Source: Perkinsus olseni (lineage: Eukaryota). From it: a stretch of 64,000 nucleotides of DNA. Positions 11,711 through 37,356 of the stretch are shown one piece after another. The notes beneath the pieces were generated by a model, which made no database searches, was not told the origin of the DNA, and was given only the letters and a program-made list of their open reading frames with translations. Position numbers and translations under genes: made by a program. How positions within the stretch are numbered: position 1 is the first letter of the stretch; every line of letters begins with the position of its first letter. The stretch is from positions 1 through 64,000 of the forward strand of contig JABANN010000057.1 in the NCBI GenBank assembly GCA_013115125.1. The letters are read 5' to 3'.

Positions 11711-14170
11711 ATGACTGGCATCTCGGACTCCTTTGAATCGAGGATAGCTGCGCGCCGTAGGAACTTTAAGAAGGCCTCTGGTGACGCTAGTGACATGCGC
11801 CGTCGCAGGGAGGTGGGCTGAGGGGGACTGGACTGAATCAGAGTTGCACGTCTGCTGATTCAGGACGCCACCGTGCAGATCCGGAAGAAGGAGAAAGAGG
11901 ACCAACTAGTCCGTCGCCGTAGACTGGAAGGCATCGAGGCTGGGGAGGCGGCTGAGTCAACTTTTAAGACGCCTAGCAAGCCGACGACTCAACCCTGCTT
12001 TAAGGAGGAAGGTAGCAGCAGCCTCAGTCGGCTTTCGTTGAGCTGACAAGGGGTGGAGCCTAGATCCTGCGTACTTGTTCAGACATCCCGGCCCTGACCA
12101 AGGCTCTCAGTTCGTCCGATGAGGCGGCGGTGATGGAGGCCTTGGTGTCCTTCAGGAAGCTCTTGAGCAAGGAGGACCGTCCTCCGATTCAGAATGTTAT
12201 TGACGCTGGAGTGGGTGATTTACAACCTACGCTTGGCCTGTACCCCCGCCCAGGTGCTGCCACGCTTCAAGGAGCTCCTAGACCACCCCATGTCGTCCAA
12301 GATGCAGTTCGAGGCAGCTTGGGCTCTGACCAATATTGCTAGTGGCAACCACGACCAGACCCGCACTGTCGTCGAACTCGGTGCGGCCTTCGGGGCGGTC
12401 GCCCGGGTCGCCGGTAGGAAGTACCTCAGGTGCCGTCGAGTCGTTCCGGAAGCTGCTGTCGTCGGACAGCGCCGATCTGCAGGAGCAGTCCATATGGGCT
12501 GTTGCCAACATCGCTGGTGATGGACCAGGTGAAACCTCTGCATTAGCTTGCCCGTCGGCTAGGAGTGTTGGAGTAGGTATCAGAGACCAATGCCTGAGAC
12601 TGGGCATTCTACAGCCGTTGTTGGACGTTATACGCGCTGGTCAGACTATCGGCTTGGTAAGGCTCGGCACTTGGGCGCTGAGCAACTTCTGCAGAGGGAA
12701 GCCGGTGAGGCGAGGGGCGTATAGCGTACGCATTGGTGAGCGGTTTCGGTGTGTAGGCGCCTCCTCTAGAGACGATATCGCCAGCACTTGCCACGTTGGC
12801 CATGGTGAGTGCGGAATCCCCCGTCAGGGTTCACGAAGTCTTAACGTCTTTGCAGGTCCTTGGGCTCGATGACAGGGAGGCTCTGACTGACGCGCTGTGG
12901 GCGGTATCGTATCTGTGTGATGGGCCTAGTGAGAGGATAGAGGCTGTTCTGATAAGCGGAGCGATACCTCGTATCGTGCAGCTGTTGGGACACGAAAACC
13001 CCTCGGTGAGGGATGTGCATGCGTGCAAGGCGTGTCATACCATAACTCTCGGTACTCGTAGGTGCACACACCAGCATTACGCGCTATAGGAAACGTAGTG
13101 ACCGGAGAGGCTCATCAGACAGCTGCGGCGGTAGAGTCCAACGCGAGCAGAGTGGGAGCCATTGCCCCTATAATCAGGTTGATGCGGGTCTCATACCCGC
13201 GCTCAAGCCACTCCTACGCAGTACCAGGAAAATGGTGAGCTAGCACTGATGGCAGCCGCTATCCGACGGTTGGCTGTGCAGGTGCGAAAGGAGGCTGTTT
13301 GGACGCTCAGCAACATCTGCGCCGATCGAGACGTACAGATTCAAAAGGTCGGCACCTTCGACAAATGGACATTCTCAGGGGTTGGGCTGTTTTGGGTAGG
13401 TGATTGAAAGCGGCCTTCTCCCTGATGTATTCGAGATGATACTCGGTGCGAAGGAGCATGAGGTTCGCCGAGAGGCTGTCTGGGTTGTGTGCAATCTTTG
13501 TACGGGCGGCACACCGGCGCAGGTCCGCCATGTTGTCGACCACTGCAACGCCATCTCGGCCATCTGTAAGGCTGGTGACGAGCGTATGGTCTGCGGTAGC
13601 TGAAGCATGGGTAGGTACGGTTTTGAACGTGAAGGACTCTAAGATGGTACAAGTCGCATTAGAGGCTATCGAGGGTATCCTGAAAGTAGGGTGTGAAGTA
13701 CAGGAGAAGACGGGGGAGAGTATGAATCGTTACTTGGAGTAAGGACGGGCTCAGGCTCAATGCACCTCTGTGCGATGCCCCTTGTGAAGGTCCGTGCGGC
13801 TCTCCTATCACATCCGCTCGCCATGTCTTGCTTTTTTGCCAAGCATCTGACCCCTCTTTTCGTTTTTCGACCTGTACCCCCGACGACACCATCATTATCA
13901 TGGTCAGGCTGCTGGAGGAGTGTGGCGGCCTGACTAAGATAGAGGAGTTGCAGCAGGACAGCAGTAAAGACGTCTACGAACGGGCTGTCAGGATCCTCGA
14001 GGGGTACGATAGCAAGCCGACGTTACGTCAGAGGATGTTCGCCTTCTGTTATACTTAGTTATTGTGAGCTGGAGGACGAGAACGAGGGGGGCCTTGGGGG
14101 CAACACCATGCCCACTGATGGCCTGGATACGATCCACCAGCAGCAGCCACCTCGCTTCGCCTTTGCATGA
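11711..14170 (+). CDS. KPNA: Importin alpha (karyopherin alpha)
   Basis: IBB domain (RRRNFKK, MRRRRED..VQIRKKEKEDQLVRRRR) and ARM repeats (QFEAAWALTNIASG, QEQSIWAVANIAGD, TWALSNFCRGKP, VRKEAVWTLSNI) joined across short GT-AG introns. Confidence 0.95.
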
Positions 14171-18097: not shown

Positions 18098-19069
18098 ATG
18101 TGGTGGTGTGATCATGGCTTCTCCCTAGAGTATCGTATACCCTCCTTATAAATGACAGGCTCCCCCAGCAGGAAATCGAGGGCTGTGGCTGGCCGCTATC
18201 CAAGGTGAGACGAAGAAGTGTCGGCTTGCGTTACTCGTGTCTTAAAGGTTTGAGCTTCGCGATGACCACAAGGCGGAGCTGAAGGAGGCCTTCGATGTCT
18301 TTGATAACGATGGTACTGGCACTATTGATGTCAGGGACCTGCGCGTGGGAGAGGGCTCCCTGTGTCAGCTGCGTTGGCAGTGATGTTGTCCAGGTTGCTT
18401 TGCGGGCCTTGGGGTTCGAACCTGAGAAGGACGAGCTGAAGCGTCTGGTTGGTGGGGCTTGGGGAGTCGCTGAGGGGCTGAGGCAGAAGCTCACTGTGCT
18501 TCAGGGAAGCACACGAGGCATCCGGTGCCGAGGCCCGCTACTGTAGGGGAAGAGTCGACGACTGGTGATAAGGAGCCTGAGAAGCCTCGATCCCGGCAGC
18601 AACAGCAAAGGGATCCCTCGACGCAGCCGACCCCGCAAGATGCTGAAGAGAGTAAGCCTCAGGAGGGGGAAGGGGAGGAGGCGACCGTGCCGGAGCCTAC
18701 CAGTGAGTCCAGCTCTGATTTGGTGGACGAGTGGTATGTGTACTGCCGAGGCACACTGGACTTCCATGAGTTCCTCGAGATCATGTTGGAGAAAATGACC
18801 GAGAAGGATTCGAAAGATGAGGTTGAGAAGGCTTATGAGATGTTCCGAGGAGAATCTGGGAAGGTGTCCTATGATGACCTCAAGGCGGTGGCGGAGGAGC
18901 TTGGTAGGATCTGCCGCGGGTGGGCGAGGGATCGGGCGGCTTAGGTGACCGCATAGCGGAGGAGGAGCTGCGGGAGATGATTACCGAGGCCGATCTGGAT
19001 GGAGATGGGCTGATCAGCCAGGAGGAGTTCATCAGAATCATTCTCAAACCCGGTAGTGGACCATTATGA
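18098..19069 (+). CDS. Centrin-like EF-hand protein with a long low-complexity insertion
   Basis: [33 protein letters not shown] ... TLDFHEFLEIMLEKMTEKDSKDEV ... ELREMITEADLDGDGLISQEEF; start codon uncertain. Confidence 0.85.
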
Positions 19070-19230
19070 GCATGGGAGGGACTGAAGTGTTGGCAGCGAC
19101 CCTTTGGTTGCGTTAGTAATGTTATACCAATCGGCAAGGGGAGGACCTAGTCGAAGCTTCGTGGTTTTCGCTAGTTCGCGGGTCTCGGAAGACGAGAGGG
19201 AAGGCGGGGTCAGCCTTTTCGGAATTTCCA

Positions 19231-22200
19231 ATGACAAATGCGGCAGTTAGGCAGTGGTTGGCGTCCGATGGGGACGAGGAGGAGGAGGAGGAGGAGCAGG
19301 ATATCGAATTGGTGACTATTGAGAAGATCATCAACCGGGCCGCCAGAGGGTAGCTTCGGGAAGACAGCAGGCCCATGGATATCCCTCATGCACAGATTGC
19401 GGCGTTGGTGCGTGGAGGATGAGGGCGAGAAGAAGGTTAGGAGCTTACTCGAAGTTATCTGGACGACTTCCATGAATTACATAAAGCGTCAAGTTGTACT
19501 CGGCAAGATGATTGCCCTGCCAACATTAGGTGCTGTGGGGGAGGGGTCAGGCGTTCGGGCCAGGGGAGATGTCAGGCACCCTCTTCACGAGGGAGGGAGT
19601 TCCCTGCATCGCCTTCGCTGAGCGGCTTATTCTCGACTATGGTCTCACTTACCTGCCGGGAGAGAGCTACTGTCTCGGACTGGTAGTAAGAGGGGTTGTC
19701 AGGGTCGTACGGGAGGAATGGGGAAAGCCCGGTGATGACAAAAGGCATTCCAAAAGACCCAGTATTGTACCGGTTGCCCGGGCAGCTGTGGTATGATGAA
19801 GCATAAAATCTTTAGTAATCTGATGAGGGTTGAGCATACCGGTCTGTGATGATATAAGGCGAATCTGTACCCGATCTGCTGTCCAGAGTCGAGGTATGAT
19901 TAATGGAATTCTTTAGTAATCTGAGACGAACGCCGTACGGAAGGCCATCGAGCGGCCTGTGTTCAACAGATTACTTTCCGTATCAGGTTGGCCCAGCGAC
20001 CCGTATAGCGTTCGGTGTTGTGGCGGAGCTCAGCGGTCGAAAGGGTGGGGATACCGTGACAGCGGCCATGGCGGAGGAGGGGTTGAAGCGTGAGCTCTTG
20101 CGGCCAATGGGAGTCAACTGCCTTTTTGCAGCGCGGTTGGACAGGTATATTTCGCGAAGCAGCTGAAGCGATGTCGATGTACCGTACTGATGTGACTATG
20201 GTATTGGAGAGCATTGGCAGAGTAGTCAGCCGGAATAAGGTCGTTGGGTGGGACATGCGGGGGAGGGCTGCTCTGGATGAGCAGGCCAGCTGGTAGGTTC
20301 CAACCTTTCGTTGAGTATGGCGCGGAGAGTGCTCGGGGAGGTAGGGGGCCCGTCGGGTTTTATTGGCGATGTGGTGGCTCCCTAGGTTCTGCGTTGAGGT
20401 CTCCGATTACACTAAAGGGCCTGGAACGTTATCACCGGGCTAGACAGAGGTCTGCACGGGGTCTGGAATTGGAAGATGGAAAGGTGGGGAGTCTGCGGTT
20501 TGATGGAGCCGCTCGTCACTTCCACGTCATTGTAGGGAATTGCCTCCCATGGTGGAGCTGGTGGATTGTATTCCGGTTTGGTATCACCAAGTAGTGGGAA
20601 GGGTACGAAAGGTATGGTATGAGCATGCGTACGGTCGTAGGTAAAGCACTGGTTCCAGCGCTTGACCTGCGTAGGAGCTTCCGGGCTCGAAGATATACCA
20701 ACCCGCAAGGCGCGTCGACTCAGAGGAGTCATCGCACAGAGTAGGGTGGGATGCTGTCAGCGGGAGGATCGTTTGAGTTGGTATAAGGTTCTCGGACATA
20801 GTTGACTTGTCGTCTCGAACACCGGGTGCTCCATCGACGCAAGTTGAAGGCCACAGCATGGACTCCTCTATTGTCGCTAGAATTGGCAGCAACTACACCC
20901 CTCTATCGAGGCGAATGTAGGACGGCAGGGCGAGACTTGTAGTACTTCACAGCATAGGGTCGCGAGGCCGGCCCGATCCGGTGAGGGCCTGGCTTGGATC
21001 CCTGTGGAGGCATCTATGCTGGGGCAACGGTTCATGCCGCTGGACGCGCCGTCTACGGAGTCCGGTGGAGAGGGGCGGCTGGCTCGTCAGAGACGACCGT
21101 TGGTGAGTGTCTGGGGGTATCCAGGTCAGGTGATACTCAGGCAGGTATTCGGCAGCCGAAAGCTGCGGAGGGCAATGAAGGACCTTGGGCACAGTCAGGA
21201 GAGTCTGCTGGAAAACTTCAATAGGTAGTATGGTTCCTGGGCTTCTAGTAGGAGCCTTCTGCTCAGGTATGATAGCTATCTTCACTCTGCTGCCCTCGAG
21301 GCCTGTATCTCGCCTGTGGATGCCGGGTCGCTCGGTCGTATTGAATCGAAGATTTGCAACGGCTCCTGGTACGGGTCGATGGGCGTGCATGAGCGAGAGA
21401 GCATCAAGAGCGCCCTCGAGGAGGTGACGAGAGGGCATGAGAGTGTTGGTATCTATGCTTGTGTGCAGCTGCGGGCCGAGATCATGGCGCAGTACGAAGA
21501 AGCTGTCCGTCGGGCGGTTGTGGATTACCTCCTTATGGACCTGCGTATGAGGGAGAGGTGTAGAGTCAGCTTCGTTCCTGTGGTGAGTGGAGATACTGTC
21601 GATGGCGAGTTCGATGATTATGGACTCCTCAGGTACGCCCTGCTTGGGGAACGAAGGCATACTACGGGATTGGGGGCAGGGTTGGAGGACCGCCTGCTGA
21701 GTGGGAAGTGTCGGTTGCCGGGGCGTAGGGCTGGCCTGTTGTGATGGTGGGGAACGAGGTCATTGGCTCAGGTTGGACTCGATGCAAAGTCCCTTGCGCA
21801 GTCTTCACGTTCCCTTCGCCGCTCTGCTGAGCCTGCAAAGGCTGTGGGCCGAGTCTTATGCTGCGGTGACTCTCAATGATCTAGCAGGTGATGGTGAGAC
21901 CAGGCGATTGTAGCGTATCGTTTTTGATCGCAGGAAAGGAGCCGGTCCGTGTGGAGACGTTCTTGGATTATCAAAGCTCGAGGCGGGACGAGAGTCGCCG
22001 GGTACTTAAGGACGTATGGATGAGCGCGGTGATTGACATCATATCACACGACCGGACGCTGATGACATTACTAGAGGACGAAGGCTCGGATGACGAAACG
22101 AAGAGGAGGAAACTGGGGGTGATCACGGCCGTCCTGTCGTCTCATCTTAGACGGTAGGCTCCCTTAGTGCATGGGGTAGGATGGCTCCACTTAGGTTGGT

Positions 22201-25200
22201 GGAGGTATCAGCTGGGGAGTTTATCAAATACGTGTTGCAACACACTTCACCCTTGTGCGGCGGAGTGGCGGTGGTGACGCCCGAACGCGCGGCCTGGGAG
22301 CTGCATGCGTGTCAAAGGGACCTCTGTGGCACCGTGGGGTAATAGGGCGCCATTGTCCTCAATCGCAGAGGGTCTCTCGTGCAGAGGGCCGCTGCCGATT
22401 CCACGGGCATTCCTGGAGTTGAGGCTGATCGCGGAGGGCAGCGCCATCGCTTTCACAACGGAGCTCGATAAAGTGCCGAGAAGGCTGGCGAAGATACTCC
22501 CTAGTATGGTCTCCGCTGTGAGGGGCTTGCCGAGGCCTGAGAGGAAGCTGCCAATGAAACCGAAGGAGTCCTCAGAGGCGGACTCGGAGGGGGAGAGTAC
22601 CAATGACCAGAGCGAAGGTGGGGTCGAGGCACCATGCAGTGCGTCACGGCCGAGAGAATGAGTAGATGCGCCGATGGTCGAGGAAGTCGGCGAGTTGTGG
22701 TATGTTGACGAGGAGGAGCCACTGATTCTTGCGGGCATGAGAGCGATCGAAGAGTCCGTGACAGTGTGCGCTGAGAATGCCGAGGGTATCGCGAGGCTTT
22801 ATGAAGGGTGAGTGTGCGTCAGGCGGCATTGGTAACGCGCTTCAACCTAAGATACGTTGATCTTCTGACAGAAGAGGACCGGGCTCCTCAGTTCATGGTG
22901 AGGGTTTTGGACACCAGTGATCGCGGAGCTTTCGCGAGGAAGGTGGGGTCTGGGGTGAAAGTCTGTCCCTGCTAAGCTTTGCGTTAGATACGGGACCTGA
23001 CCAGTGTCGAGGCATCCCTGCTTGACCACTGCCCATCCGTCCTGGACCTTCAGCTCTTCCGTATAGACTCGGGGAGGTTGCATGATTCCTTGGTAGCCGC
23101 GGCACGAGCCGGGAAGGAGGCTATGAGGGAGGCAGTAGTAGAGAGGAACAAGGAGCGGTGCATTCATGTACTTAAGAGGCTGGAGGAGTTGGCGGTGAAG
23201 TTGAGGAAGCCGGCCAGTACCGAGGCCCAGCTTGCTGCATTAGAACGTACGTTGGGAGGGCTGAAGAAGGAGGGGTTTTTGGCTATGTTTGAGGAATTCC
23301 AAGAGTGTCTGAGATGGCAAGATGTACTATCCGACCTGGACCTAATTGTGGGCCCCGAGGAGCTGTCGTTGGTGTATGAGACTGCAGTCTGGCTCCGCAA
23401 GATTGAGCGGCTTTGCAGCGAGCGAGAGGATGGGCTTCTGAAAGAGCGCGAGGTCTTGGAGGAGAAGTTCAGCGCAACGAGGAGGAAATTCGAGGCTCAG
23501 TTGGAGGGAGTGTGTAATGCCGTCGACCGAGTTGAGGAGCTTGGTACTCTGCGATTGGCGGAGGAGAATCTCGGGCGTGTTGCCGCGGCTAGAGAGAAAG
23601 TAGATGGGGCTGTGCGTGAGGCTGCTAGAGTGAATGAGAAGGAGGTGGACCTGGGATATCCTGTGAGCCCTTTTGAACAGTTGAAACAAGTAAGACTCCA
23701 GTACAGCGACATTTTTCCTCTCCATGTGGATAATTTGGCAGGCGGTGGCTGGGCTGGAGGCTTGCGAGAAGTTGTGGGGGTTAGCATTTGAGTTCAACAG
23801 GGACCATCAACAGTGGACTCGAGGGCCGCTGTTTTACCAAGAGCCGAAGCTCATCGACGAAGCTTCATCGCGGATGCTCAACTTGGCCAGCCAACTAGAA
23901 GAGCTCTTCGCTGAGGATACCCCTCCCCGTGGGGTCGTTGCAGCGATGAAGTCGCAGCTGGAGGAGTTCAGAGAGAGCTTGCCTTTGATTCGGGTTGGAG
24001 TCCATTTCCGGGTGGTCCCTATGCAGCTCAGTGGCCTCAGGTCCTCTGCTGGAAAGGACTTGCCGCGAGACACTGGGAGGAGATATCGGACGTCGTGGGC
24101 TTCCACATGGAGCCAGACCCGACCTTCACTTTGTCTAGGATACTCGATATGGATGTGGGGAAGCATGTGAGAGGATAAGGCTAGCCGCTAGCCTTCATAG
24201 ATCGCTATTTGTGGATTCTTGGTTCAGGTGTCTGCTCTCATGGCCATCGGTGAACGTGCTGCTGTAGAGTCGAGAATAGCAGAAACGCTCAAGGAGTTGA
24301 AAAGACAAGCTGCTGAGCCCACTCTGAAGGCGACCAGATTCGGCTGGACTTCTTCTTTTGTGAGCTCTGATGTCGTCTATCCGGGCGGAGTATGTCCTGA
24401 GTCGTTCCAAGGTCCTGTCTCCGGACTCCGTCCGAGCTGTGAGAGGTGCCTTAGCGGACCACCTACTGCGGCTGGACGGCGAAATAATGAAGGTGGCTGG
24501 GGCTACTGAGGTCCCCGGGCTTTCGGAACTGAGAGGTCGTCGTGAGCGGACCCTGGCAGTGGGCGGGATCATTGATATGTGGGTGGAGACCGAGAGGGAG
24601 TGGAAAGCGCTGCGCTATGTCTTGGATGGCAAAGGAGCTGATGCTGGGCTTCCTGGGTTCGAGGATGAGCACTTCCAGTGTTTCGGTGAGGTAAGAAGCT
24701 AATGAGGTGGACCATTGTGCGGACCCTCTTGGGGGTGTGTCCGCGTCCAAATTCGGCGGCCGAATCTAGTGATCTGTGAAGTTCACAGATCGCTGGATTC
24801 GGGTTTGAGTGAACTTCATCGTCTTCAGTATGGGTCTTTCAGGAGTTGAGCACTCGCGTAGAAATTGTTCTCTGATTCGCTGTTGCACACTACGCCAAAT
24901 ATGAGGATACTCGCGGTAGTGTGGGCTATGGGTAGGTAGATGAGCGTTGGAGAGAGCTGATGATGAGAGTCCACGACTCACCTCTGACGGTAGAGGATCT
25001 ACTGAAGAGCGGCAACACTGTTGCCGATAAGCTCAGGTTTGTATCTAGGAAGCTCGAGTTGGTAGGGCTCGGAGTTTCTCCGTGTGTGGATGTGTGTTTG
25101 GCAGTTGTCTCCAGCATTAGGGAAGTACATGGAGGCCAAGCGTCATCAGTGCCCACGCCTGTTCTTCCTATATGGGGACTCCGAAATGCTCAACTGGCTG

Positions 25201-28200
25201 GGTAGTCGATCGGAGGACCCCACTATGGGTCAGCATGCTTGGAAGCTCTTCGGTGGAGCTGAGCGCCTCTGGGTTGACGAGGGTCGGGTTCTTGGCATGG
25301 AAGCGGCAGGAGGATCTAAGTTGGAGTTCGAGGAGCGTGTGGAAGATAATGGGGATGTGGCCGATTTCGTACGATGCTTGCAGAACGCTATGCAGTCTGC
25401 GATACGCTCGGTGGTACTGCGGGTTTACCGAGGGAAGGCTGTCGCCCAACTCGGGGAGGATATCCCGGGAGAACCTCTTCAAGTCGTGGAGTGCTCGAGC
25501 GAGGTCAGCTGGGCAGCACACATCGAAGGGCTATTGCGGGCTGAGGAGCTGGAGCCTTTGAGGGATTACTGTGGACGGCTTGCTGAGGCCCTCGGCGCTG
25601 TAGTGGCTTCAATCCGGAACGGTACTGCATCACCGGCGGGGCAGCAAAGGCGCCTGGAGTCGCTTGCTGTGATGACCGTGCAACATCATGATGTTGTTGA
25701 GAGACTGTGTGGTGCAGGAGAGGGGCGGGTCTTCTTCTGGCAGTCGCAATTGAAGTACAGCATTGACGAGGAAGGCAGGGCGTGGGTGGAGACACTGGGG
25801 TTCAGGCAGCCGTACTGTTATGAGTACATCGGAGAACGCGGGAGGATGGTCATGACGCCGACAACACTTAGAGGGTATCACACCATGTTTCTCTCGCTGC
25901 GATCTTTCCATGGGACCATGATTGATGACAGGCCGGGGTCAGGGAAGGGCGCTTTGGTTAGGGACCTCTCCCGAGCATTAGGGCGGCCATTATTGGAGCT
26001 TGTCTGTAGTGAGCGGATGAGCTTCAGCCTCATCGAAAGGGTCCTCAAGGGTATGGCGGGTGGTGGCGCCCTTTGCCTGGTGAAAGATGCTGATAAACTT
26101 ACTGGGGAGGTAGGCGGGATGTAGGCTCTGGGAAAATGAGAGGATTTTCTTCAGGTACTGCCAGGGCTGTTTGACACGCTGCATAGGATATGCTCGACGG
26201 TGAGCTGCGGCGAGTCCGAGCTGGTCTGCAGTGGAAGGAGCCTCCCCCTGATGACAACTTTCGGCTACTTTCTGACTGTGCGTGATCAGCGCAGCTTCGC
26301 TCAGTGGCGGAGGAAGACGTGTCACCTTCTACGACCGTTGTCGAGGGTAGAGCCTGATATACAGACCGTGGCGGGCATAGGGTTGAGGATGGCTGGTTAC
26401 TCGCGGCCATGGGAACTCAGCAGAGGGCTATCGATAGTACTGCGCGCCAGTGAGCACTTGATGGGCTCAGGCGAGAGTCGGAGCTGCTGTGTAGCTCTAT
26501 TGAAGAGGATATTGGAGAGGCTCCCATCGCAGGAAAAAGCTTCCATGGGATTGCAGGGAGAGGTAGTCCGCGCTCTGGAGGATGTCCTGTTGCCGAGGCT
26601 GCGTAATGCTGGTGACGCTGAGCTTGTGAAGAGTCTCGCCAGGGAGCTGCTCGCTGGCAGCCCGGTCGAGTGCTCCGCAGTAGTGGCCGAACCGGACGTC
26701 TCACAACATAGCTTTGATTCTAAGGCGGTGAAGCTCTCGGATATGTTGGCGAACAGGAGGGGGGTTTTCGTAACGGGTCCGCCATGTAGCGGGAAGAGTA
26801 CGATGATCGCTGCAGCTGCTGCTTTGAGTGGCCTATCCTCCAGTGCTGTTTTCACGGTCTGTGCCGGGGCCTACTGTGCTCAGGAGATTCTTGGTAGCTC
26901 CGTCTGGGGCAGTGGTTTGGTCACCTCCTTACTGCGAGATCATGATGAGGGCCCCGTGTGGATCGTGCTGGACGGCTGCCCGGTGTCTGCGGTTGAGGGC
27001 CTCGCGCTCTTGCTAGAGAACGGGAGCCATGCCCTCCAGTCGGGCGATCGAATCAGAGTCAACCCTGGTGCACGGGTCCTGTTCGAAGTGCCGGACCTAG
27101 GGCTTCTCTCGCCCGCGCTGGTGGGGAGGTGTGCTGTGGTAGCTCTAGGCGATGAGCTCACCTGGGCTATGGTCTTGGATGGCTGGTGTCCTGAAGGAGG
27201 GGACACTGACGTTGTGGCCGAGGTTCGGGAGGGTGTGAGACGCTTCGTGCTGGGGTTGGAGGCAGCGCAATCAGCAGAGAATGGAGGCATGCTGGATGAA
27301 ATTCCTTTGGGGCTCGTTGCCAAGAACAGCTGCAAGCTGGCTTGGGCTCTTCTGCCGGAGGCGAGAAAGTAAATCAATAGGATCCACAGGGTGGTCGACA
27401 GACTCGGTTCTCTGTCTCAGTTCGGCATCGGCCGTCGCAGCAGGTCAGCAGAGGAGCGCGGCCCCTTTCGACGGTTTTGTACAGCGAACTGTTATGTGAG
27501 TGGGGGGGGCTACTGGGGGCGTTGGAAAGACTGTGACCTTCCTCTCGCGTGGCTTGTCAGGTACGCTGCAGTGTGGAGTGTGTGCAGCTTTTTGGGCAGG
27601 GCTCTCGAGGACTGGCATCGTGTGGAACGGGTGAGCGGCTGCTGGTCGGACAGCCGGTAGGTCATCTCAGGTTATTCGAAATATTGCTGCAAGGGACTGT
27701 CTGGGTGCTGAGCGGTCCGACTGCCACTTGGCAATGCCTTCTGAGGGGTAGGTGCGCTTAGGCTGGCTCCCTAGGGGGAGAATCGGCTCAGGTCCCTCTT
27801 TGATTACATCCCCGTGATGGATGCTTCCGGGTGGTTGGCTTGCCGCTCGCAACTGAATGGTGGATGCAGGCTGCTGCTGCTCCCAACGGCTCCACAGGCT
27901 GGAGCCTTGGCGCTGTTGCCTCGCCTTGCTGCCTCGAGCGAGCGAATGTGCGTAGTACTGCGAGGCCCTCGAGGGTGTGGCAAATCTACCATCATCAGTA
28001 GCCTCGCGGAGAGGCCATTTGAGAGCCGCTACCGAGACAGGTAAATCACCGCAGTCGGCCGGAGTATCATCTGAGGGAGGGATCCTAGGTTGATGATAAT
28101 GACCACAGCTGCGACAGGCTCGAATGATATACAGAAATGCCTTGAGGAGGGAGTGGTGAAGCGCACCCGAGGTGGCGCCGCGCCTTCCCAAAGGGAACAT

Positions 28201-31200
28201 GGGCCGCGAGCAGATACTTTCGGCTCGGCTGGTGGGGAGGGCACAATGGTGGTGATAGAGGATTTGCATTTGGCCAAGCAGGTGGAGGGAGTGCAGCCTG
28301 CGGTGGAGTTCCTCAGGGGGGTGGGTGATGGAAATCGCCCTTGAGCGACTGGCTAATGATGCAGGTTGTGATGACGCGAGGATGGTTGGATCGATCAGCG
28401 TGGCGCAGGGTCAAGGTTGAGGGTAATGTTCACTGGGTCGTTAGTATGACCTCGCCACTGAACGGGGGGAGTGCTGGCCAGTCCCAGGGCTTCGGGCCTC
28501 ATAGTAGGCTCTTGAAGGACGCTATCACGGTAATGATGCTGAGAACACGAGCGTTCTGCCGCTGCTTCGTTTCTGAGTAGTCCTATTCAGATCGGCCTCC
28601 CAAGCGTATCCAATGCAAGCATGGAAGCCATCTACAGTGAAGTGATATCTCGCGTTTTCTTGAGGGGTAGTGTCGTCTCTTGGCCGCTGGCTTGACCACC
28701 CATTCCTCAAGGTTCCGGTGAGTCAACCGCCACCCTAAGAGGTTCCACTGGGCTGGAAAGTATCTCTAACGTCATCAGAGTGTACGGCTGGATAGGAGAG
28801 AAGGACTGACTTTCGCTTTTGCAGGTATCGTGAACAGACCGGCCCTCTCAGCACGAGTATGTGGCGATATGAACTTGGCCGCACCCTTGAGGCCTGCTCG
28901 CTTGGGGAGGGTCAGGCTTTGATCCGTGAGATACGAGATGATATCCTTTGCGGTGCGGACGGAACGACTGACGTCCTCGAGGGCATGTTGCCGGAGCAAG
29001 AAGATATCACGGCTGTGGTGGAGGGAAAGTTGGAAACATTCCGCTCTGTCACTGATCTCTTGGAGTATCTAAGAAGGAAGCTGGCTGGCACAGCGATGAG
29101 CTCTTTTGCCTTGTGGCCAGACATGGTGCGGCATAAGTCCCGACTCGCTGCCCACCTCCCCTTTCCAGGTCAGGACGATCGCTGGCTTGAGCTGTGTGCT
29201 CACGAGAGCTAATGGCCACGTTACACTGCTGGGCGAGCAGCCTGGCATTGTTGGCAAGGCTGTTGTCGTCCGACTCACTTGCTTCCTTGCTGGAGTGCAG
29301 CTACAGGAGCTGGATGCCTCCGATCTCGCAGAGAATGTGTGCTTGGAGGAAACAGCTGCCGTGGTGGGCTCGAGGAGGGGTCATCGACTCAGAAAGTACA
29401 TCTCCCTCAGTGCTCGACCGAGGTGGTAGTGATGATCCGGAACTCGAACGCCCTCACCAACGGGGCGTTGCAGAGCATCTCGCGCCTGACGAGCATGGTG
29501 AGTTAAGTTGATCAGACACAGTGGCTCCGGGTTCTGTAGGGCCGAACGAGTCGGTCGACGGGCAGCGATCATGGTGGACAGGGCGAGGCTAGGTGAGGTA
29601 ACCCTCTAACAGGCAGAGGCGGATGGGAACCTGTGTAGAGCGGGTAACGTCCACGTCGTGCTGTGCGTGGAGACGGCCGAATCTGGCCTGTTGGAAGCGT
29701 GGGCGCGGAGGTTTCCGGAGATACTGAAGACCTGTGTGAGGCTGAGGTACTGAACTCTTGCGAGGCGAATAGAGTCGGAAATCGCCGCTGCTCCTAGGCA
29801 AAAGACGTGGACTCAGGACATCCGCCGTATCGTGTTGAGGGCAAAGCTTGAAGCGGTCGCTGGGCAGTTCGATGAGCTTCATGTAAACGACCTCGCCAGG
29901 CGTCACAGTCGCGCACTTGCCATTCGCTTGGCCATGTTTAGATTGGCAAGATGATTGACGCCTTCTTGGCCGTGGCTGAAGACGACCGGCATTTGATGAC
30001 GTTATTAGAATGCTTCAGTCGCCTCTTCCTGAGGAGGAAGAACACTCTCGAGGAGGTGAGGTTGGGCCTTCACCGTCCCCCTCCTCGAGCTCAGTGTGCA
30101 GATGCTCACCGGCGCCCAGGACTGTTGCGATCGGCTTGAATGTATCGTACAATGGATCGAAGGGACGAGGGAGCTTTTCGCCGGTGGGCTCCAGCCACAC
30201 GCACTCGGCCTACTGACGGACAGAATCCACGCTGTCGAGGGGGTGAGGCTCGCGCATGACGCCTCTCCGAGTAGACGTCTGACATGCCGACTTATCAGAG
30301 TGTTGATACCGCCGTGGCAGCTGATGCTGCGGAGAACGCTTGGCCCAGCTTGGAGGCGGCAGAGGCTGAGCGAGCCCCATCTGAGGATGCACTTGCTGGT
30401 CCGCGAGGAGGGTTGGACAGGGCCAATAGGCTGACCGAGGTGCTTACCGTTGGCCCATGGTCACAGTTCATTACGCTTCGGACCATGTTGGTCCTTGGAT
30501 GGTTGGCTGTCGCCCCAGGTTCTCGAGTCTGCCCGTACCGCTGTGTGGGAGCCTCAGCGCTCCTTCGCCGAGGCCAACCTGGTGTCTCTGGCTGGCGATG
30601 CGCTGCTCTCTGCATTGCTGCTGACCTCACTCGATGGGGATGGGGCTGCTAGTCGTGTCCATGGCATGGAATCTTGCAAGGTCTTGATGGAAAGGCTTGG
30701 TATACCATACGACCAGGACTACTCACTGGCGAGGTTCACGTCAAGGGAGGTAGGCCAGGCTGCCGCTCTGGATGCGACGAGGAGGCTGCCAGATCAACGG
30801 AGTGCGGAGGGAAAACCCGATGTATAGCGGGCTCCTCCGGGCTGCTGTAGTAGAATATATGGTGAAGACTGGAGCTGAACGGGTACTCATTGCGGAGCTA
30901 CACGGGCAAGCAAGGCCGCCCCGTTGTGGAGGAGACTCTGTTGTTGTGAGGGGCGAGAGCCTTCCTGAGATCAGCATGAGAAGGAGTCTGAATCAGGTTG
31001 TCTCCGCTACCTCTCGGGACCTTCAGGCGACTTTGAACCAAGGAGTGGCCTCTGGAGCCGACATACTGGTAACGAACATCGGTAGGCAAACCCGAGGCGT
31101 GAAGGTTGCCGCAGCCTGTCGATATAATCAGGGGAGAGAGTCGGATCTGTAGTACAGGAGCTACGATCCTTGTCCACACTTGCTGAGGAGGGCGGGGACG

Positions 31201-34200
31201 GTACAACTGCGTCGAGGTAGGACTAACATGAGCCCCCTACAGCACGGCCGGGTCGTGGCCAGCGAGGAGCCCTACTTCATAACGCTGGAGGGTATAGTCA
31301 TGCCGTGCCCTCTTTTCTCAGGGTCTACATCGTGATTGATCGAGCATCGCGTCCAGTCGATGTGGCTGGCTGTGTGGGCGATGGAATCTCCGCGGTCGAC
31401 TTCTCGCTCGACAATGCTGCCATCTGTAGTTGGCTTCTGCATGCGGTAATATCATGGCGGTGCTGCTTCACCACCACCGAATGCCGTATCCCTCACCGTA
31501 GCATGTCCAGTGCGTGTGAACAGTTCCCTGCATGGAAGAATTGGAGGGGCCATGACGCTCACGCAGGTTGTGGAGCAGAGTGCTCAGCCGCGAAGAGAGA
31601 AACCCGAGGCGAAGAAGGCTGCTAGCGCGTCCAGGCTGACTGAGCTGCGAGGAGCTTTGCCGCGCATGGTACTTGCCAGTGACGAGACTCTTTATGACGA
31701 GGAAGAAACTGTGACTCGCATGTGTAACGAATGGGTATTGCAAAGCCTTCGGTCATAAGGGGCTCCGATGCCCTCACGGAGCTCTCGCTGCAGGCGAGAT
31801 ATGCGAGGAGATAACGCAAGCTCACCAGCAGCTGGCGGAAGAATCGGTGGTAGAGGTGAGAGTATCTACTGAGTCGTATGGGAGGTACATCCAAAACGGC
31901 TCGCCGTGTTGTCCTTACCCGACCAGCTGTGTCAGCTGTCTATGCTTGGACTAGGTACGAGTGGCTGGTGCGAGGTCTGGCTGCAGTTTACGGAGTAGTT
32001 CGCTTGATGCCCAGGCTAAGCGCTGACTATTGGTAGTCTAGCTTTGGGTGGTCACTCTTCCCTGCGTTTCATAGCTCTCGGCGGCGTCAGGATTCCGCCC
32101 GGCACCTTCGTCACCTGGTGTAAGGAGGGATTAGGGGACCGAGCTGGAGGTCCGGATGGCGATGGCGCCAATGCCGAGCAGCTGAAGCTCTGCATTAGCC
32201 ACATCTTGCGGATGCTCCTCCTCGCATGCGACAAAGTGAGGTCCTCATTTTAGTGGGCTTAGATGATAGTGGTCTTGTGGCATCGGTATAGTAGCTGTGT
32301 TTCAGCGTGACCATCTCGTACTCGCTCTAGCGGTCACTCTGGCACTGGAGTCGCTGAGCGGGCCTCAGTCAGATGTCTACCATCAGTGTTTGAAGTTCTT
32401 ATGCGGCGAGAGTACAGAATCCTGCGGGGAATCAAGTGAGCTACGGCAAGCTGATCTCGGTTCCGCCGGCCGGTATTCCTGCCCGGGCTCCTCGTTTCGT
32501 TTAGCACTGTTGTGGCTCGGTTAGGAGAGAGCCTCCCTGAGGACCTGAAGGAGCCTAGCGAGTGGTTAACAGAAGCGATATGGCGCAATTTCAACCACCT
32601 GTGAGGCTGGCAGAGGTCCCGTCAAGTTTGACCGGATCTGTGCCGAATCTCTTCTCAGCGAACGGCTCGGGGGTCCCTTGCTGAACATCACGGCGAGCTT
32701 GTGTAAGGATCCGGCGCGATGGAACTGTGTGAGGTGCTCTGGCTGCGACTGGCCTTGCCAGCTCAGTGACGTCGAGAAAGCTGTGGTTTTGGTGGCATTG
32801 GACAGTGACTGCCTTGTGAGATTGGCTCCATCAGTGGCCGCCGGCTGATGAGATCCGCCCCTCAGAGTGCGCATTTGCAATCACTCGTCTCAAAGGAATG
32901 GGACCTGGCCCTGCCATTCACCAGAAGAGACCTGCTGCTGCAGCTGACTAGGTTACCTCCCAGGGTGTATCCGATAACTGTGCTCTATGGGATAGCAGCT
33001 CGACTGCAGTACAGCATGGATATAGTGCAGAGAATATTGGTAGGGCATACCAATACTACTGGCAGCCAGTGGAGGAATCGTATCAGGATATTCCACCTGA
33101 GAGAGTGATGGAGGTCATGTCGTTGGCCAGCATTGAGGAGTCGCGGCTCGAGGGTGTCGTCACCGAGGCCGCAAGGTGGGGATACGTGACAGACTTCGTT
33201 CGGTGTCTCGGTTCTACGGCGGCATCTTCCACACCTGAGCAGCTAATGTTCGACCTTCTTAGCTCCGGTCGTGTAGTCTTCCTGCGGGACGCGGATTACG
33301 GGGTGAAAGCCTTGCTGGCGATCTGTGAGGCTCTGCGAAAGCTCAGCAGCGGTGTAGAGTCGAAAATCGCGGAGGGCTTCCGCATCATCCTGACTGTTGA
33401 CGATGCATCAGTGCTTCCAAGCCAGGTGAGGGCCAAATCGACCGAACCACCGGGTCCCAAACAGGGAGGGGATGCTCAGGTACTGGAGCATAGCGTCAAA
33501 GTCTCGGTGGCAGATGGCTGGGTTACGGATGCAGTTGGAGAGTGCCTGTAGGGTATGGGTGAAACTTCTCTAAGAGAGACATAGCTAGAGTCCTGACCGC
33601 TGTATTGACTTGGTCCCACCGCAGGTCAACTCGAGAGGCCTCCAGAGGTTGTCGGCGACGGGAGCTCGACCGCCTCGTTGACTTCCATTTGGCTGTAACT
33701 GATCCTGGGATGAACGCCGTGGCTAGGTACGCCCTCGTCTCCCGTCATTGCCTAGTCGTTAGCGAGAAGCAGTCATGTCTGCGCCCCAGATATTGCCACC
33801 CGCTAACAGAAGCAGATCTACGAGTAGCCGGGGAATTGCTCCTATCGACTGGGCCGAGCACAGAGACTGAGATACGCCAGATGGACTATCTCATCAAGGA
33901 CATTGTCTACGGCAGCGGGGATCGGATGCCTGACGACGAGGATGGCTGTGAGTTTCGGTCGTATCTATTCCTCGTTGTACGCCCTCGAAGGCCTCAGCTC
34001 CTCATATAAGGCAGCTTCGGTCCCAGCGCGGGTCTCCATAACTGCTGGAGTGGAGCATGAGTGAGACTGGCAAGTACGTAGGAGGGAGGAGCGTCTTGGT
34101 TGTTATGTAGGTCACCCGGCGCTCGGAGCTCATTCCCGAACGTGAGGAGACGCTGGGGGGAGCGGGAGGGTACCAGGCTGTGGAGTCGAAGTGGTTGAGA

Positions 34201-35185
34201 CCAGTTCCGTTGATTCTCATTGTAGGAAAGAGGCTTGCAACCCTTCTGGGTATCGACAAGCGACGGATAGTCGACCCCGTACACAGCAGCTCACAGCTGG
34301 GACCCGACCTCCCTGCTTTGGCGGAGGGTCTGAGGCGCGGCTATCCTGATCGCCGGTGGGTGTCATATTAACGTGGGTGAGACTCGCGGCCGAGAGATAG
34401 TGCAGGTTGGATGGCAGTATCTTTGATCACATCCTGCACGCTGAATGCGAAGACTTCGATTGTGCCTTGGCGGAGATCTCAGTGGATAACCACGGCTGGA
34501 CAGAGGAACAGAGGTCTCTCCAAATCCGTCTTATGAGCGCACAGGAAAGATTCCTTCGACAGTGGTACCACTTGGTTCAGCCTAGCATCATGCTCATTCT
34601 GCCATCCAGGATCGAGTCGGGACCACCCAGGGAGTGGGCGCTGGGCCTCCTCTCGCGACCGGGTCGGCTCCTGATTGCTGTGCTTGCAGCGGCCAGGTGT
34701 GACGTAGGCCAAGGGGAGTTGGTGTGGAGGTTGAGCGCGGCATCTGCGGACACTTCCCCTACTTCGGCGGAAGGTCAGACTAGCGGACTCATCGTGAGTG
34801 CCCTCCAGCGATGGCTGATGAGTGTTTTTCACGGTTCCTCTCACTATTAGATAAGTGCCTTGCATGTGGTGGAAGGCCGTCGGGGTTACCACAGTAGAGC
34901 GACGGGGAGCATGGAATCGCTAGAGGAACCCGCATACCGGCTGCCTGCCATGCTACTGCGCCCAACAACGCCGCCACCTAGAAGCACCTCTCAGAGCACA
35001 GAGGAAGGCATTTACTGCACTGCGATCGTCTCGAGGAATCGCGGGTCGATTGGAGTGGCCAGGCGCCGCTGGTGGCAACTGGTTTTCTCAGGCACCTCAT
35101 AGACGTCGAGCTAGCAGTTGAGGACGGCGAAACGAGGATCCTGCTCCCCCCGATGGGTGCCTTCATCCTCCTCGTCACCCCATGA
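19231..35185 (+). CDS. Highly divergent axonemal (inner-arm-type) dynein heavy chain-like protein; exons at 19231-20900 may be a separate gene
   Basis: Tail motif YEEAVRRAVVDYLLMD; linker YMEAKRHQCPRLFFL; FFWQSQLKY; YCYEYIG..RMVMTP; P-loops GPPCSGKST and GPRGCGKST; SLAGDALLSA; C-terminal LIDVELAV...GAFILLVTP*. Confidence 0.9.
19728..19829 (+). ncRNA. Intronic box C/D guide RNA predicted to target U5 snRNA Cm45 (U85-like), copy 1
   Basis: C box GTGATGA 19732-19738, C' ATGATGA 19793-19799, D box CTGA 19820-19823. Guide aaatctttagtaa is complementary to U5 UUACUAAAGAUUU. Terminal ccc/ggg. Confidence 0.8.
19842..19927 (+). ncRNA. Intronic box C/D guide RNA predicted to target U5 snRNA Cm45 (U85-like), copy 2
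   Basis: Terminal stem gtct/agac; C box 19846-19852 followed by tataaggcgaa; C'-like ATGATTA; guide tctttagtaa; D box 19921-19924. Confidence 0.8.
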
Positions 35186-35212
35186 TCTCCTAATTCCTAT
35201 GTGACATGTGCC

Positions 35213-37356
35213 ATGTCGTCTCCTGATTGCCATCTTTCGTTGCGGTTGAGTTCTCCTAGTGTTATGACTCGAAGGGATGGGACAGGTGGTACATTTTTGG
35301 TCATCACTATGAGACCGCAACGGCCGCCGCCGCCACCACCGCCGAACCATCGAACAGAGATCGCTTTGCTGGTCGACAAGGCAATTTCTGTATTGCAAAG
35401 TAGGCCGGACTGGGGTCGTTCTGCATGGATCATCATCGCTCGGCTGGGGATGGATGTGGTCGTTTCAGTGACGATATCGGCCTTGGCTCGGGAGAGGGAC
35501 ATCCTGGATGATGAGTGGCGGAGATTAGGGGAGACTCAGGAGCACGAGGGACTCTCTGCCGTCCACGCTCACACCATACCAACAGAACCCTCCGCTGAGA
35601 CTGACCACGTACCCTCTATTGAAGATGGGGCTGTAGGGTTTCGATGCTCGAGACTGCGAGGTGTATGGCTATGGCCCAGGTTAGCGTGTCGGACCTCCTG
35701 CCACCTGCACCCCAGGGGAATGACCCTGTGTCAGCAGCAGCCGCTGTCGCTGCTATAGACTTCGACTCGCACGCTGCAATCTCCCCTATGAGAGCAGTAG
35801 CGGCAGCGGCGGCAGCTCAACAGCTTTCTTCTCGCGGGCGTGGGGGCCGCAGGTCTAGTGGAATACCTGGCGTTAGCTGGCATTCTCAGACAGGTAAGGG
35901 CATCGGTGTCACTGTCTTACTCAGGGTCCCGCGCTGTAGGTCGCTGGGTTGCGCGCTGGACCGGTGACGACAAGAAGGAGCACTCGAAGGGGTTCTCAGC
36001 CAAGCGACACGGTGATGCCAAGGCCCTTCAGATGGCAGTCGGTAAGTGATGAGTGGGAAGCTACTACTGCCCCTCAGAAGTGCTTGCTTAGCCACTAGAA
36101 GAGCAATGCACGTTCGAGCCTCGGACCATTCTTCACCAATCGGTGAGGATGCCGCCATGACCCCGCCCTCTGAGGGGTCGGAAGCGAACGAGGAGCCTGC
36201 TGCTAAGAGGAGTCGTGACGAAGGGCAGCTATGTACTTACTCTGTGGTCCCTTGGTGGTCACGCCTCCTCCTCAGACGAGACAATATCGGCCCTAGCTCA
36301 ACTGGCAAGTGACCCCGTTCTCGGGCATCCAGGCCCGCCAGAACGGTTAACGACGGTGGAGGATTGCCTCGCCTTGTGTGACCTTGGCACTGTAATACAC
36401 CACTCGGTTCCTTGTCGCCGGAATGACGATCTTATGCTGTTAACAGTTGGGGTCGCATCCTCTCACGCCAGAAGCCGAACGAGAGGTCGCCGAGGCCGTG
36501 CTACCTCCCCTCCCTTCTGGGGCTCATGCCAGTACGGACCGACCCAGCGGAGTGAGTCTCTCGTTGACGGTGTAGTATTGCCCAACGGGCCTGCGCTGCT
36601 CAGGTACAAGGCGTGACCTGGCATCCACTCAACCGCACATGGGCTACACGGTGGCGGGAGTCCGAGGGTCAGCAGCGGAGCAAGAGCTTTGCGGTGTCCA
36701 AGTATGGAGACGATGGAGCCTTCAGACTCGCTATCAGACTACGGAAGGTAAGCCGCTGTTGACGCATGCATTCAGAGGTGACTTGAGGAACTCCTTTCCG
36801 CGCCAGTATTGAAGGAGTGACAAATCGATGCTGCTGGTTTGTCCTAAGCTACGATGTCTTCCTTCAGCTCCTAGAAGATTTGGGCTTCGTCTCGCCGCAC
36901 CTCGGTCGACCGTCAGAGCGAGGCACTCCTCCACCGGTGGCGTCTCTCCCGAGCACCGAGGCATGGATACCTAGTGCCATGCCAGTGGTGGCCGAGGAGC
37001 AGGCCTCGGACCATGCGGCGGCGATGCCACATCGTGGACCTGGTGCTAAGATGAGAAGTGGCGTCCCCGGCGTGACTTGGAACGAGACCTATCAAATGTG
37101 GGTTGCGAGGTGGCGTGAGGAGCCTAAGGGTAGGCTGATGTCTGTTCTTCCGAGGAGCCCGTGAGTTTTAGCCTCAGGTCGAGAGAACAGTCGGACATTC
37201 TCGGTGAAGCAGTATGGAGCGCATGAGGCCTTGCAAATGGCAATTGATTATAGACGAATGATGGAGGACGTCGGAAGGGTGTGTCTCCCGAGAGGAGCAA
37301 CATCTTCGGCGGCTGCCACGATGGCACATCACGCCGAAACTGCAGAAGACGATTAA
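35213..37356 (+). CDS. ApiAP2-type transcription factor with three AP2 domains
   Basis: SGIPGVSWHSQTGRWVARW...KGFSAKRHG; YKGVTWHPLNRTWATRW...KSFAVSKYG; SGVPGVTWNETYQMWVARW...RTFSVKQYG. Start could be 35213, 35264 or 35309. Confidence 0.9.

Follow-up and report, generated by a model that had tools for sequence, protein, structure and literature searches.

A dynein heavy chain with a stump stalk

A very divergent dynein heavy chain gene of Perkinsus olseni, a protist from a genus that parasitizes oysters and clams, very probably encodes, judging from its sequence, a chain with a stump stalk, no microtubule-binding domain (MTBD), and a degenerate AAA1 nucleotide site. The gene lies on the plus strand at about 19.1–35.2 kb of contig JABANN010000057.1 (GenBank assembly GCA_013115125.1), within positions 1 to 64,000, the whole 64,000-nucleotide stretch that we analyzed and refer to as the window. 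It shows 83–91% identity to partial P. olseni proteins. The best explanation, which we favor with modest confidence, is an intact heavy chain derived from the inner-arm type in which the stalk has been reduced to a stump and which is probably a non-motile "pseudo-motor".

The DNA of the window is eukaryotic, and its introns are short and of the GT..AG type. A splice model built with P. olseni proteins as guide, together with Pfam matches on open reading frame (ORF) pieces and on P. olseni protein models, places the gene at 19120–35185 (plus strand), with 58 exons, 3,898 codons (3,898 aa), zero internal stops, and exons making up 73% of the span. This model is approximate, with a few in-frame introns probably retained, and is unreliable 5' of about 22 kb; its 5' part conflicts with some splice joints from RNA-type reads. 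Ab initio splice models made without homology hints skipped or over-split exons and were rejected. The P. olseni protein models used for comparison (P0001–P0005, P0155, and P0156) are partial, and the ORF at 26140–27369 has 83–90% identity to four partial P. olseni proteins.

The stump occupies the interval between AAA4 and AAA5, all of it on the plus strand. In the sequence and gene model, exon 29942–30055 encodes the last part of the AAA4 lid and the start of the coiled-coil segment CC1 (RKNTLEE at 30035–30055). Two 47-codon exons follow. The first (30102–30242, 96–100% identical among P. olseni copies) runs from the CC1 base, with the CC1-start motif CCDRLE at 30123–30140, to an LQP motif (30183–30197) and into the beginning of a middle segment that cannot be assigned. 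The second (30299–30439, found in P0005, P0155, and P0156) encodes an acidic tip segment rich in Ala and Glu, followed by the first part of the CC2-base motif (LDRANRL at 30413–30433). A 77-codon exon at 30519–30749 supplies the CC2 end (AGDALL at 30591–30608) and the start of AAA5. The three introns within 30056–30518 (30056–30101, 30243–30298, and 30440–30518) are of the GT..AG type and measure only 46, 56, and 79 nt, so that no hidden exon is possible in the stump; a preliminary description of the window had likewise claimed that there was no room for a missing exon.

To size the loss, we aligned P0005 with 28 canonical dynein heavy chains from an exhaustive search and counted residues between equivalent columns. 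From the CC1-start Lys to the GD of the CC2 end there are 125 aa in both the window model and P0005, compared to a median of 326.5 aa (range 312–338) in the canonical chains, and from CCDRLE(L) to the equivalent of LDRAN(R) there are 76 aa compared to a canonical median of 278.5 aa (264–290). Spacing on the flank is canonical (R to GD, 32 versus 31; GD to IP, 37 versus 37). The counts pin down the landmarks and indicate that about 200 residues are missing, including, in the predicted protein, the entire MTBD. The preliminary description, which had placed the two landmarks about 70 codons apart (we count about 71 between the motifs it quoted) and had read the interval as loss of most of the stalk together with the MTBD, is borne out on both points. 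The roughly 50 residues that separate the LQP motif from the CC2-base motif have no canonical resemblance, and this middle segment is acidic (10 Asp/Glu versus 3 Lys/Arg in 53 residues). The LQP-motif region itself is assigned to the CC1 base by local alignment and to the MTBD end by global alignments.

Profile tests gave the same picture. From 90 canonical stalk regions we built a profile of 420 nodes, of which the MTBD covers approximately nodes 131–262; it matched the Perkinsus segment solely at nodes 300–407 (CC2 base and AAA5 start, 20–22 bits). We then scored sub-profiles against 500 shuffles of the Perkinsus stalk segment. The flanking landmarks exceed chance, because the CC1-base and CC2-base scores were each equalled by only 1 of the 500 shuffles. 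In the same test neither the distal-CC1 sub-profile (260 of 500 shuffles as high or higher) nor the sub-profile of the last MTBD helix (H6) and CC2 start (58 of 500) gave a signal, and the MTBD sub-profile had zero matches to the segment at any threshold. Pfam MT (PF12777) was matched neither in P0005, even at E≤1, nor in the ORF pieces of the window, while the canonical chains P0007 (5e-39) and P0120 (4e-35) served as positive controls; the scan for the stalk domain that had been proposed in advance thus came back empty, and the predicted protein is without a coiled-coil stalk bearing an MTBD. On the far side of the gap, joining the exons at 30439/30519 restores the CC2 motif, which fits the canonical profile, and residues 238–337 of P0005 align with residues 2955–3052 of human DNAH6 (CC2 end and AAA5 start) in a search of solved structures, a match that is colinear and by itself non-significant.

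The short interval in DNA contigs and other assemblies

Contigs assembled from two DNA sequencing runs of two studies (X1 and X3) each span 19800–36500 in one piece, at depths of 130 and 182, respectively. The X1 contig carries 1 differing letter and one 1-nt insertion relative to the window, and the X3 contig has 0 differing letters, although either run may be source data of the assembly. The proposed check that reads should span the region is therefore answered by contigs that cross it collinearly and show no sign of an assembly collapse. The companion check, that orthologs should share the in-frame deletion, came out the same way: P0005, P0155, and P0156, which derive from other P. olseni assemblies and represent two divergent copies, have the same short interval in frame.

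The copies differ from one another in other respects. P0001, P0002, and P0003 are different partial models from one P. olseni assembly, as judged by locus-tag prefix, that show 87–90% identity to the window and differ mutually, which points to divergent haplotypes or recent paralogs. P0004 leaves the shared frame at window positions 30395–30405 and ends a few codons on, which reflects either an allele that truly carries a frameshift or a mistake in that assembly.

A predicted AAA ring with a degenerate AAA1 site

Outside the stalk the predicted chain keeps the dynein plan. The ORF pieces of the window match Pfam DHC_N2 and AAA_6, with the linker region (DHC_N2) at 23694–25440 on the plus strand (ORF pieces 23694–24167 and 25066–26121). 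Among the P. olseni models, P0002 matches DHC_N2 at 9e-50 and AAA_6 at 3e-19, P0004 matches AAA_6 at 5e-26, and between them the two models also match AAA_7, AAA_5, and lid domains. A linker followed by AAA1 identifies the predicted product as a dynein heavy chain. Further downstream Pfam is nearly silent: there were no matches on ORF pieces beyond 28.8 kb of the window, none to AAA_8 or AAA_9 in the Perkinsus dynein models, and the sole C-terminal trace is a Dynein_heavy D6 match below the family cut-off (E 1.1e-3). AAA4, AAA5, AAA6, and the C-terminal region are represented by colinear phmmer alignments to canonical chains (e.g., q224–732/t2994–3502, E 8e-6). AAA6 and the C-terminal region extend over 33273–35185 (plus strand), to the stop codon, as placed by these matches and the sub-threshold D6 trace. 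The AAA5 helical hairpin, which we take to be the strut (buttress), lies at 31434–31964 (plus strand; alignment columns 640–760) and is colinear and of approximately canonical length. By sequence, then, the six AAA modules stand in canonical order through the C-terminal region.

We judged the nucleotide-binding motifs in an alignment with 16 canonical chains (all coordinates on the plus strand). The AAA1 Walker A at 25927–25953 is degenerate, reading DRPGSGKGA versus the canonical GPAGTGKTE, with Gly after GK and the Thr lost, and in the AAA1 Walker B at 26068–26097 Lys-Asp replaces Asp-Glu; the catalytic AAA1 site (GK[ST], DE) is thus absent from the predicted protein. AAA4 also has a degenerate Walker A (29232–29261), in which two residues are inserted and the Ser/Thr position is taken by Ala. 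The P-loops of AAA2 (GPPCSGKS, 26776–26799) and AAA3 (GPRGCGKS, 27964–27987; also matched by Pfam AAA_7) are intact. The degenerate AAA1 motifs, the tail matches to inner-arm chains, the DHC_N2 linker, and the colinear ring modules agree with the earlier claim that both the ATPase site and microtubule binding were lost while tail and ring were kept.

Probable descent from an inner-arm type of dynein

Over the tail, linker, and AAA1–3, the best solved relatives of the Perkinsus chain are DNAH3, DNAH1, DNAH7, DNAH12, and Chlamydomonas inner-arm chains (E 2e-65 to 1e-49), compared to 1e-36 or weaker for outer-arm chains and 1e-27 to 1e-31 for cytoplasmic chains. Descent from a single-headed inner-arm dynein type is the best reading of these sequence matches, judged by Protein Data Bank match scores, on which long-branch effects are likely. 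Single-headed inner-arm dyneins have the same domain order as the Perkinsus chain from the tail to the C-terminal region; they differ from it in sequence (approximately 30% identity), and the Perkinsus chain has degenerate AAA1 Walker A and B motifs and about 200 fewer stalk and MTBD residues. In the exhaustive search the score fell from 992 to 141 bits outside Perkinsus (approximately 30% identity), where the next matches were ordinary dyneins of unrelated eukaryotes.

Among the matches in a representative library that covered both stalk flanks, only one other chain was without an MTBD core, a 4,261-aa dynein heavy chain (P0128). Its Pfam MT match is confined to profile positions 222–335, and its AAA_8 and AAA_9 domains are 275 aa apart. 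Although P0128 shares the missing MTBD core with the Perkinsus chain, all its other dynein domains are strong in Pfam, and it is no nearer to Perkinsus than ordinary dyneins are (E 4e-20).

Probable function of the Perkinsus chain

We propose the following account of the chain, reasoning in part by analogy with known dyneins. The first approximately 37 residues past the AAA4 lid would run colinear with the CC1 base, the approximately 55 residues that directly precede AAA5 would form the CC2 base, and about 50 acidic residues would lie in between, so that the distal coiled coil and the whole MTBD, some 200 residues, would have been lost. Such a chain presumably could not act as a microtubule motor, because it has no MTBD and its AAA1 would be unable to hydrolyze nucleotide, and we would expect neither microtubule stepping nor cross-bridging from it. 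Its conserved, inner-arm-like tail might anchor it within the axoneme of the zoospore or within a dynein complex, where the nucleotide-binding ring (AAA2 and AAA3) together with the stump of stalk base and strut may form a scaffold that supports or regulates. Because the tail, the AAA2 and AAA3 sites, the stalk base, and the AAA5 hairpin are kept, the chain appears most likely to be a subunit that is non-motile and has a structural or regulatory role, either in the zoospore flagellum or in dynein pre-assembly. Whereas the architecture is highly probable, we give the function as a non-motile pseudo-motor about an even chance.

Whether the gene is maintained bears directly on this proposal, and we examined it with the run of a divergent strain (X8), using 12 of 84 indel rows and the 40 best-supported of 1,610 differences. 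All 10 of the listed indels whose length is not a multiple of three fall in modelled introns, and the single exonic indel is 6 nt long. The listed differences comprise 15 non-exonic, 18 nonsynonymous, and 7 synonymous changes, or 19, 15, and 6 when four sites of a probable intron at 33727–33789 are moved, and their density outside exons, where 27% of the span holds 15 of the 40, is roughly double that within. The stump exons are 92–96% identical to the P. olseni copies, P0005 among them, compared to gene-wide identities of 85–87% for these copies (84.6% for P0005); several ring segments are also above the mean identity of the gene. In the RNA-type run (X7; none of the runs that match the window is recorded as RNA), depth over the dynein gene is low, and seven GT..AG joints fall in the 5' part of the gene, at 20089–22194, with a depth of 12–15.

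Several observations weigh against the proposed account. The nonsynonymous to synonymous ratio of about 2.5:1 is close to neutral, which indicates either weak constraint on residues or too small a sample. The three junctions of the stump are absent among the best-supported 15 of 28 joints, and RNA-type contigs run unspliced through predicted introns at 29191–29882 (record 8) and 30532–31356 (record 9). All comparisons of conservation are at P. olseni-level divergence, and the protein searches returned no Perkinsus species beyond P. olseni, no other genus, and no intermediate relative. P0004 carries the short interval only until a copy-specific frameshift in exon 30299–30439. Finally, the structure prediction that had been proposed was run with single-sequence AlphaFold2 on residues 1–671 of P0005 and was too poor for use (mean pLDDT 42.6, pTM 0.27), and it lends no support to a hairpin in the stump. 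As a separate observation on the unspliced X7 stretches, they possibly represent pre-mRNA, intron retention, or DNA carry-over.

A rival reading is a decaying relic, an inner-arm paralog that lost its motor role and is drifting toward a pseudogene with low transcription and no function of its own. On its side stand the near-neutral ratio (18:7, or 15:6 as corrected, among 25 listed exonic differences), the frameshift in P0004, the shallow, partly unspliced RNA-type contigs, the extreme divergence from all other dyneins (approximately 30% identity), and C-terminal Pfam domains that are mostly under threshold. We nevertheless consider decay unlikely. No stop interrupts the 3,898 codons of the 58 exons; the listed frame-breaking indels are all intronic even though 73% of the span is exonic, and the only indel within an exon is 6 nt long; the listed differences thin out within exons; the stump and several ring segments exceed the mean identity of the gene; and the haplotype type that is frameshifted in P0004 is in frame in P0156, which comes from another strain. 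We therefore take the gene to be maintained but fast-evolving. The preliminary description had argued for a new function rather than random decay, and only part of this stands. The case against decay is supported by the open frame, the intronic position of frame-breaking indels, and the high identity of the stump, and it falls short of a demonstration in view of the 18:7 ratio, the P0004 frameshift, the unspliced downstream RNA-type contig, and the reach of the comparison, which is limited to P. olseni-level divergence; the function can be called new only in a relative sense, since the literature already describes dynein heavy chains that are non-motile or MTBD-less.

A maintained gene could also serve outside the axoneme. 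In the non-flagellated trophozoite the chain might act, away from microtubules, as a dynein-derived AAA+ scaffold or remodeller that binds nucleotide at AAA2 and AAA3 and uses the stump as a new interaction surface, an option that we regard as rather improbable; if true, it would be an independent case, from a protist, of a dynein ring put to non-motor use.

Still less probable, in our judgment, is that the chain binds microtubules or another filament through a new, unrecognizable element in the approximately 50–85 residues between the stalk bases and works as a short-stalked motor or tether. In its favor, the middle segment is kept in all copies and is helical by low-confidence prediction, and the P-loops of AAA2 and AAA3 are intact. 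However, the segment is much shorter than a canonical MTBD (approximately nodes 131–262 of 420) and matches no MTBD profile, its excess of acidic residues (10 Asp/Glu against 3 Lys/Arg) would be ill-suited to the acidic surface of a microtubule, and AAA1 is without catalytic residues.

An assembly or annotation artifact, in which the stalk and MTBD dropped out through a collapse or an overlooked exon, is negligible as an explanation, since nothing supports it positively beyond the missing stump junctions among the best 15 of 28 RNA-type joints, whereas the contigs of X1 and X3, the DNA runs of two separate studies, follow the window collinearly across 16.7 kb, the same protein interval recurs in three other P. 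olseni assemblies, the three introns sum to just 181 nt, and the CC2 motif is rebuilt across its junction to match the canonical profile.

Relationship to known non-motile dyneins

The non-motile pseudo-motor that we favor has parallels among known dyneins. DNAHX of sea urchin sperm is described as a heavy chain that is non-motile, its AAA1 being non-conserved and its microtubule binding disrupted, and a structural or regulatory role has been proposed for it; it derives from the outer-arm alpha chain, is restricted to animals, and carries insertions in the stalk-MTBD region and in AAA4 (PMC11785096). DNHD1 has been argued to resemble it (PMC11785096). Like the Perkinsus chain as predicted here, DNAHX combines a non-conserved AAA1 and lost or impaired microtubule binding with a retained ring and tail. 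In contrast, DNAHX is an outer-arm-derived animal protein altered by insertions, whereas the Perkinsus chain is an inner-arm-like protist protein altered by deletion, and on the traits described in that source it is not a member of the DNAHX subfamily.

Human and mouse DNAH12 is described as MTBD-less and yet is required for flagellar assembly, via DNAH1 and DNALI1 (PMC11949491), and its solved human chain in the Protein Data Bank is 3,960 aa long. DNAH12 is an inner-arm-type chain, and its reported lack of a typical MTBD matches the Perkinsus chain as predicted here; it differs in being an animal gene, with no loss of AAA1 motifs reported in the available part of PMC11949491. Class-12 dyneins, in turn, are described as having a stalk without the typical microtubule-binding site and coiled coil (Kollmar 2016, PMC5100056), and the same survey lists 75 orphan dyneins whose tails can still be aligned to known classes. 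Both descriptions have a parallel in the Perkinsus gene. The main text of PMC5100056, which lists its orphans in supplements, contains no mention of Perkinsus, and titles and abstracts of the literature on Perkinsus dynein heavy chains and on stalkless or truncated-stalk dyneins yielded no paper on the Perkinsus gene. We thus regard the gene as a new instance of an already described non-motile type of dynein, independent of the animal cases, and not as a new type.

Such an instance would matter in several ways. Non-motile heavy chains (DNAHX, DNHD1, DNAH12) have only recently been recognized in animal flagellar assembly, and an example from an alveolate parasite would show that pseudo-motors arise repeatedly. 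The combination of a clean excision of about 200 residues and a dead AAA1 with retained AAA2, AAA3, and stalk base would make the chain a natural "minimal" construct for a ring that does not walk. There is a warning for annotation as well, since the P. olseni models that bear the name "Dynein heavy chain 2, axonemal" represent pieces of an atypical and probably non-motor gene.

Neighboring features of the window

Other features of the window were noted in passing, all on the plus strand. A crude model at 18246–19349, directly upstream of the dynein gene, has a translation that by eye resembles an EF-hand protein of the centrin/caltractin kind, and ORF pieces at about 12000–14100 by eye look like armadillo-repeat, importin-alpha-like sequence. 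Just downstream of the dynein gene, at 35399–36447, lies a gene with six GT..AG joints and an X7 depth of about 200–370, which is 20–100 times the depth over the dynein gene.

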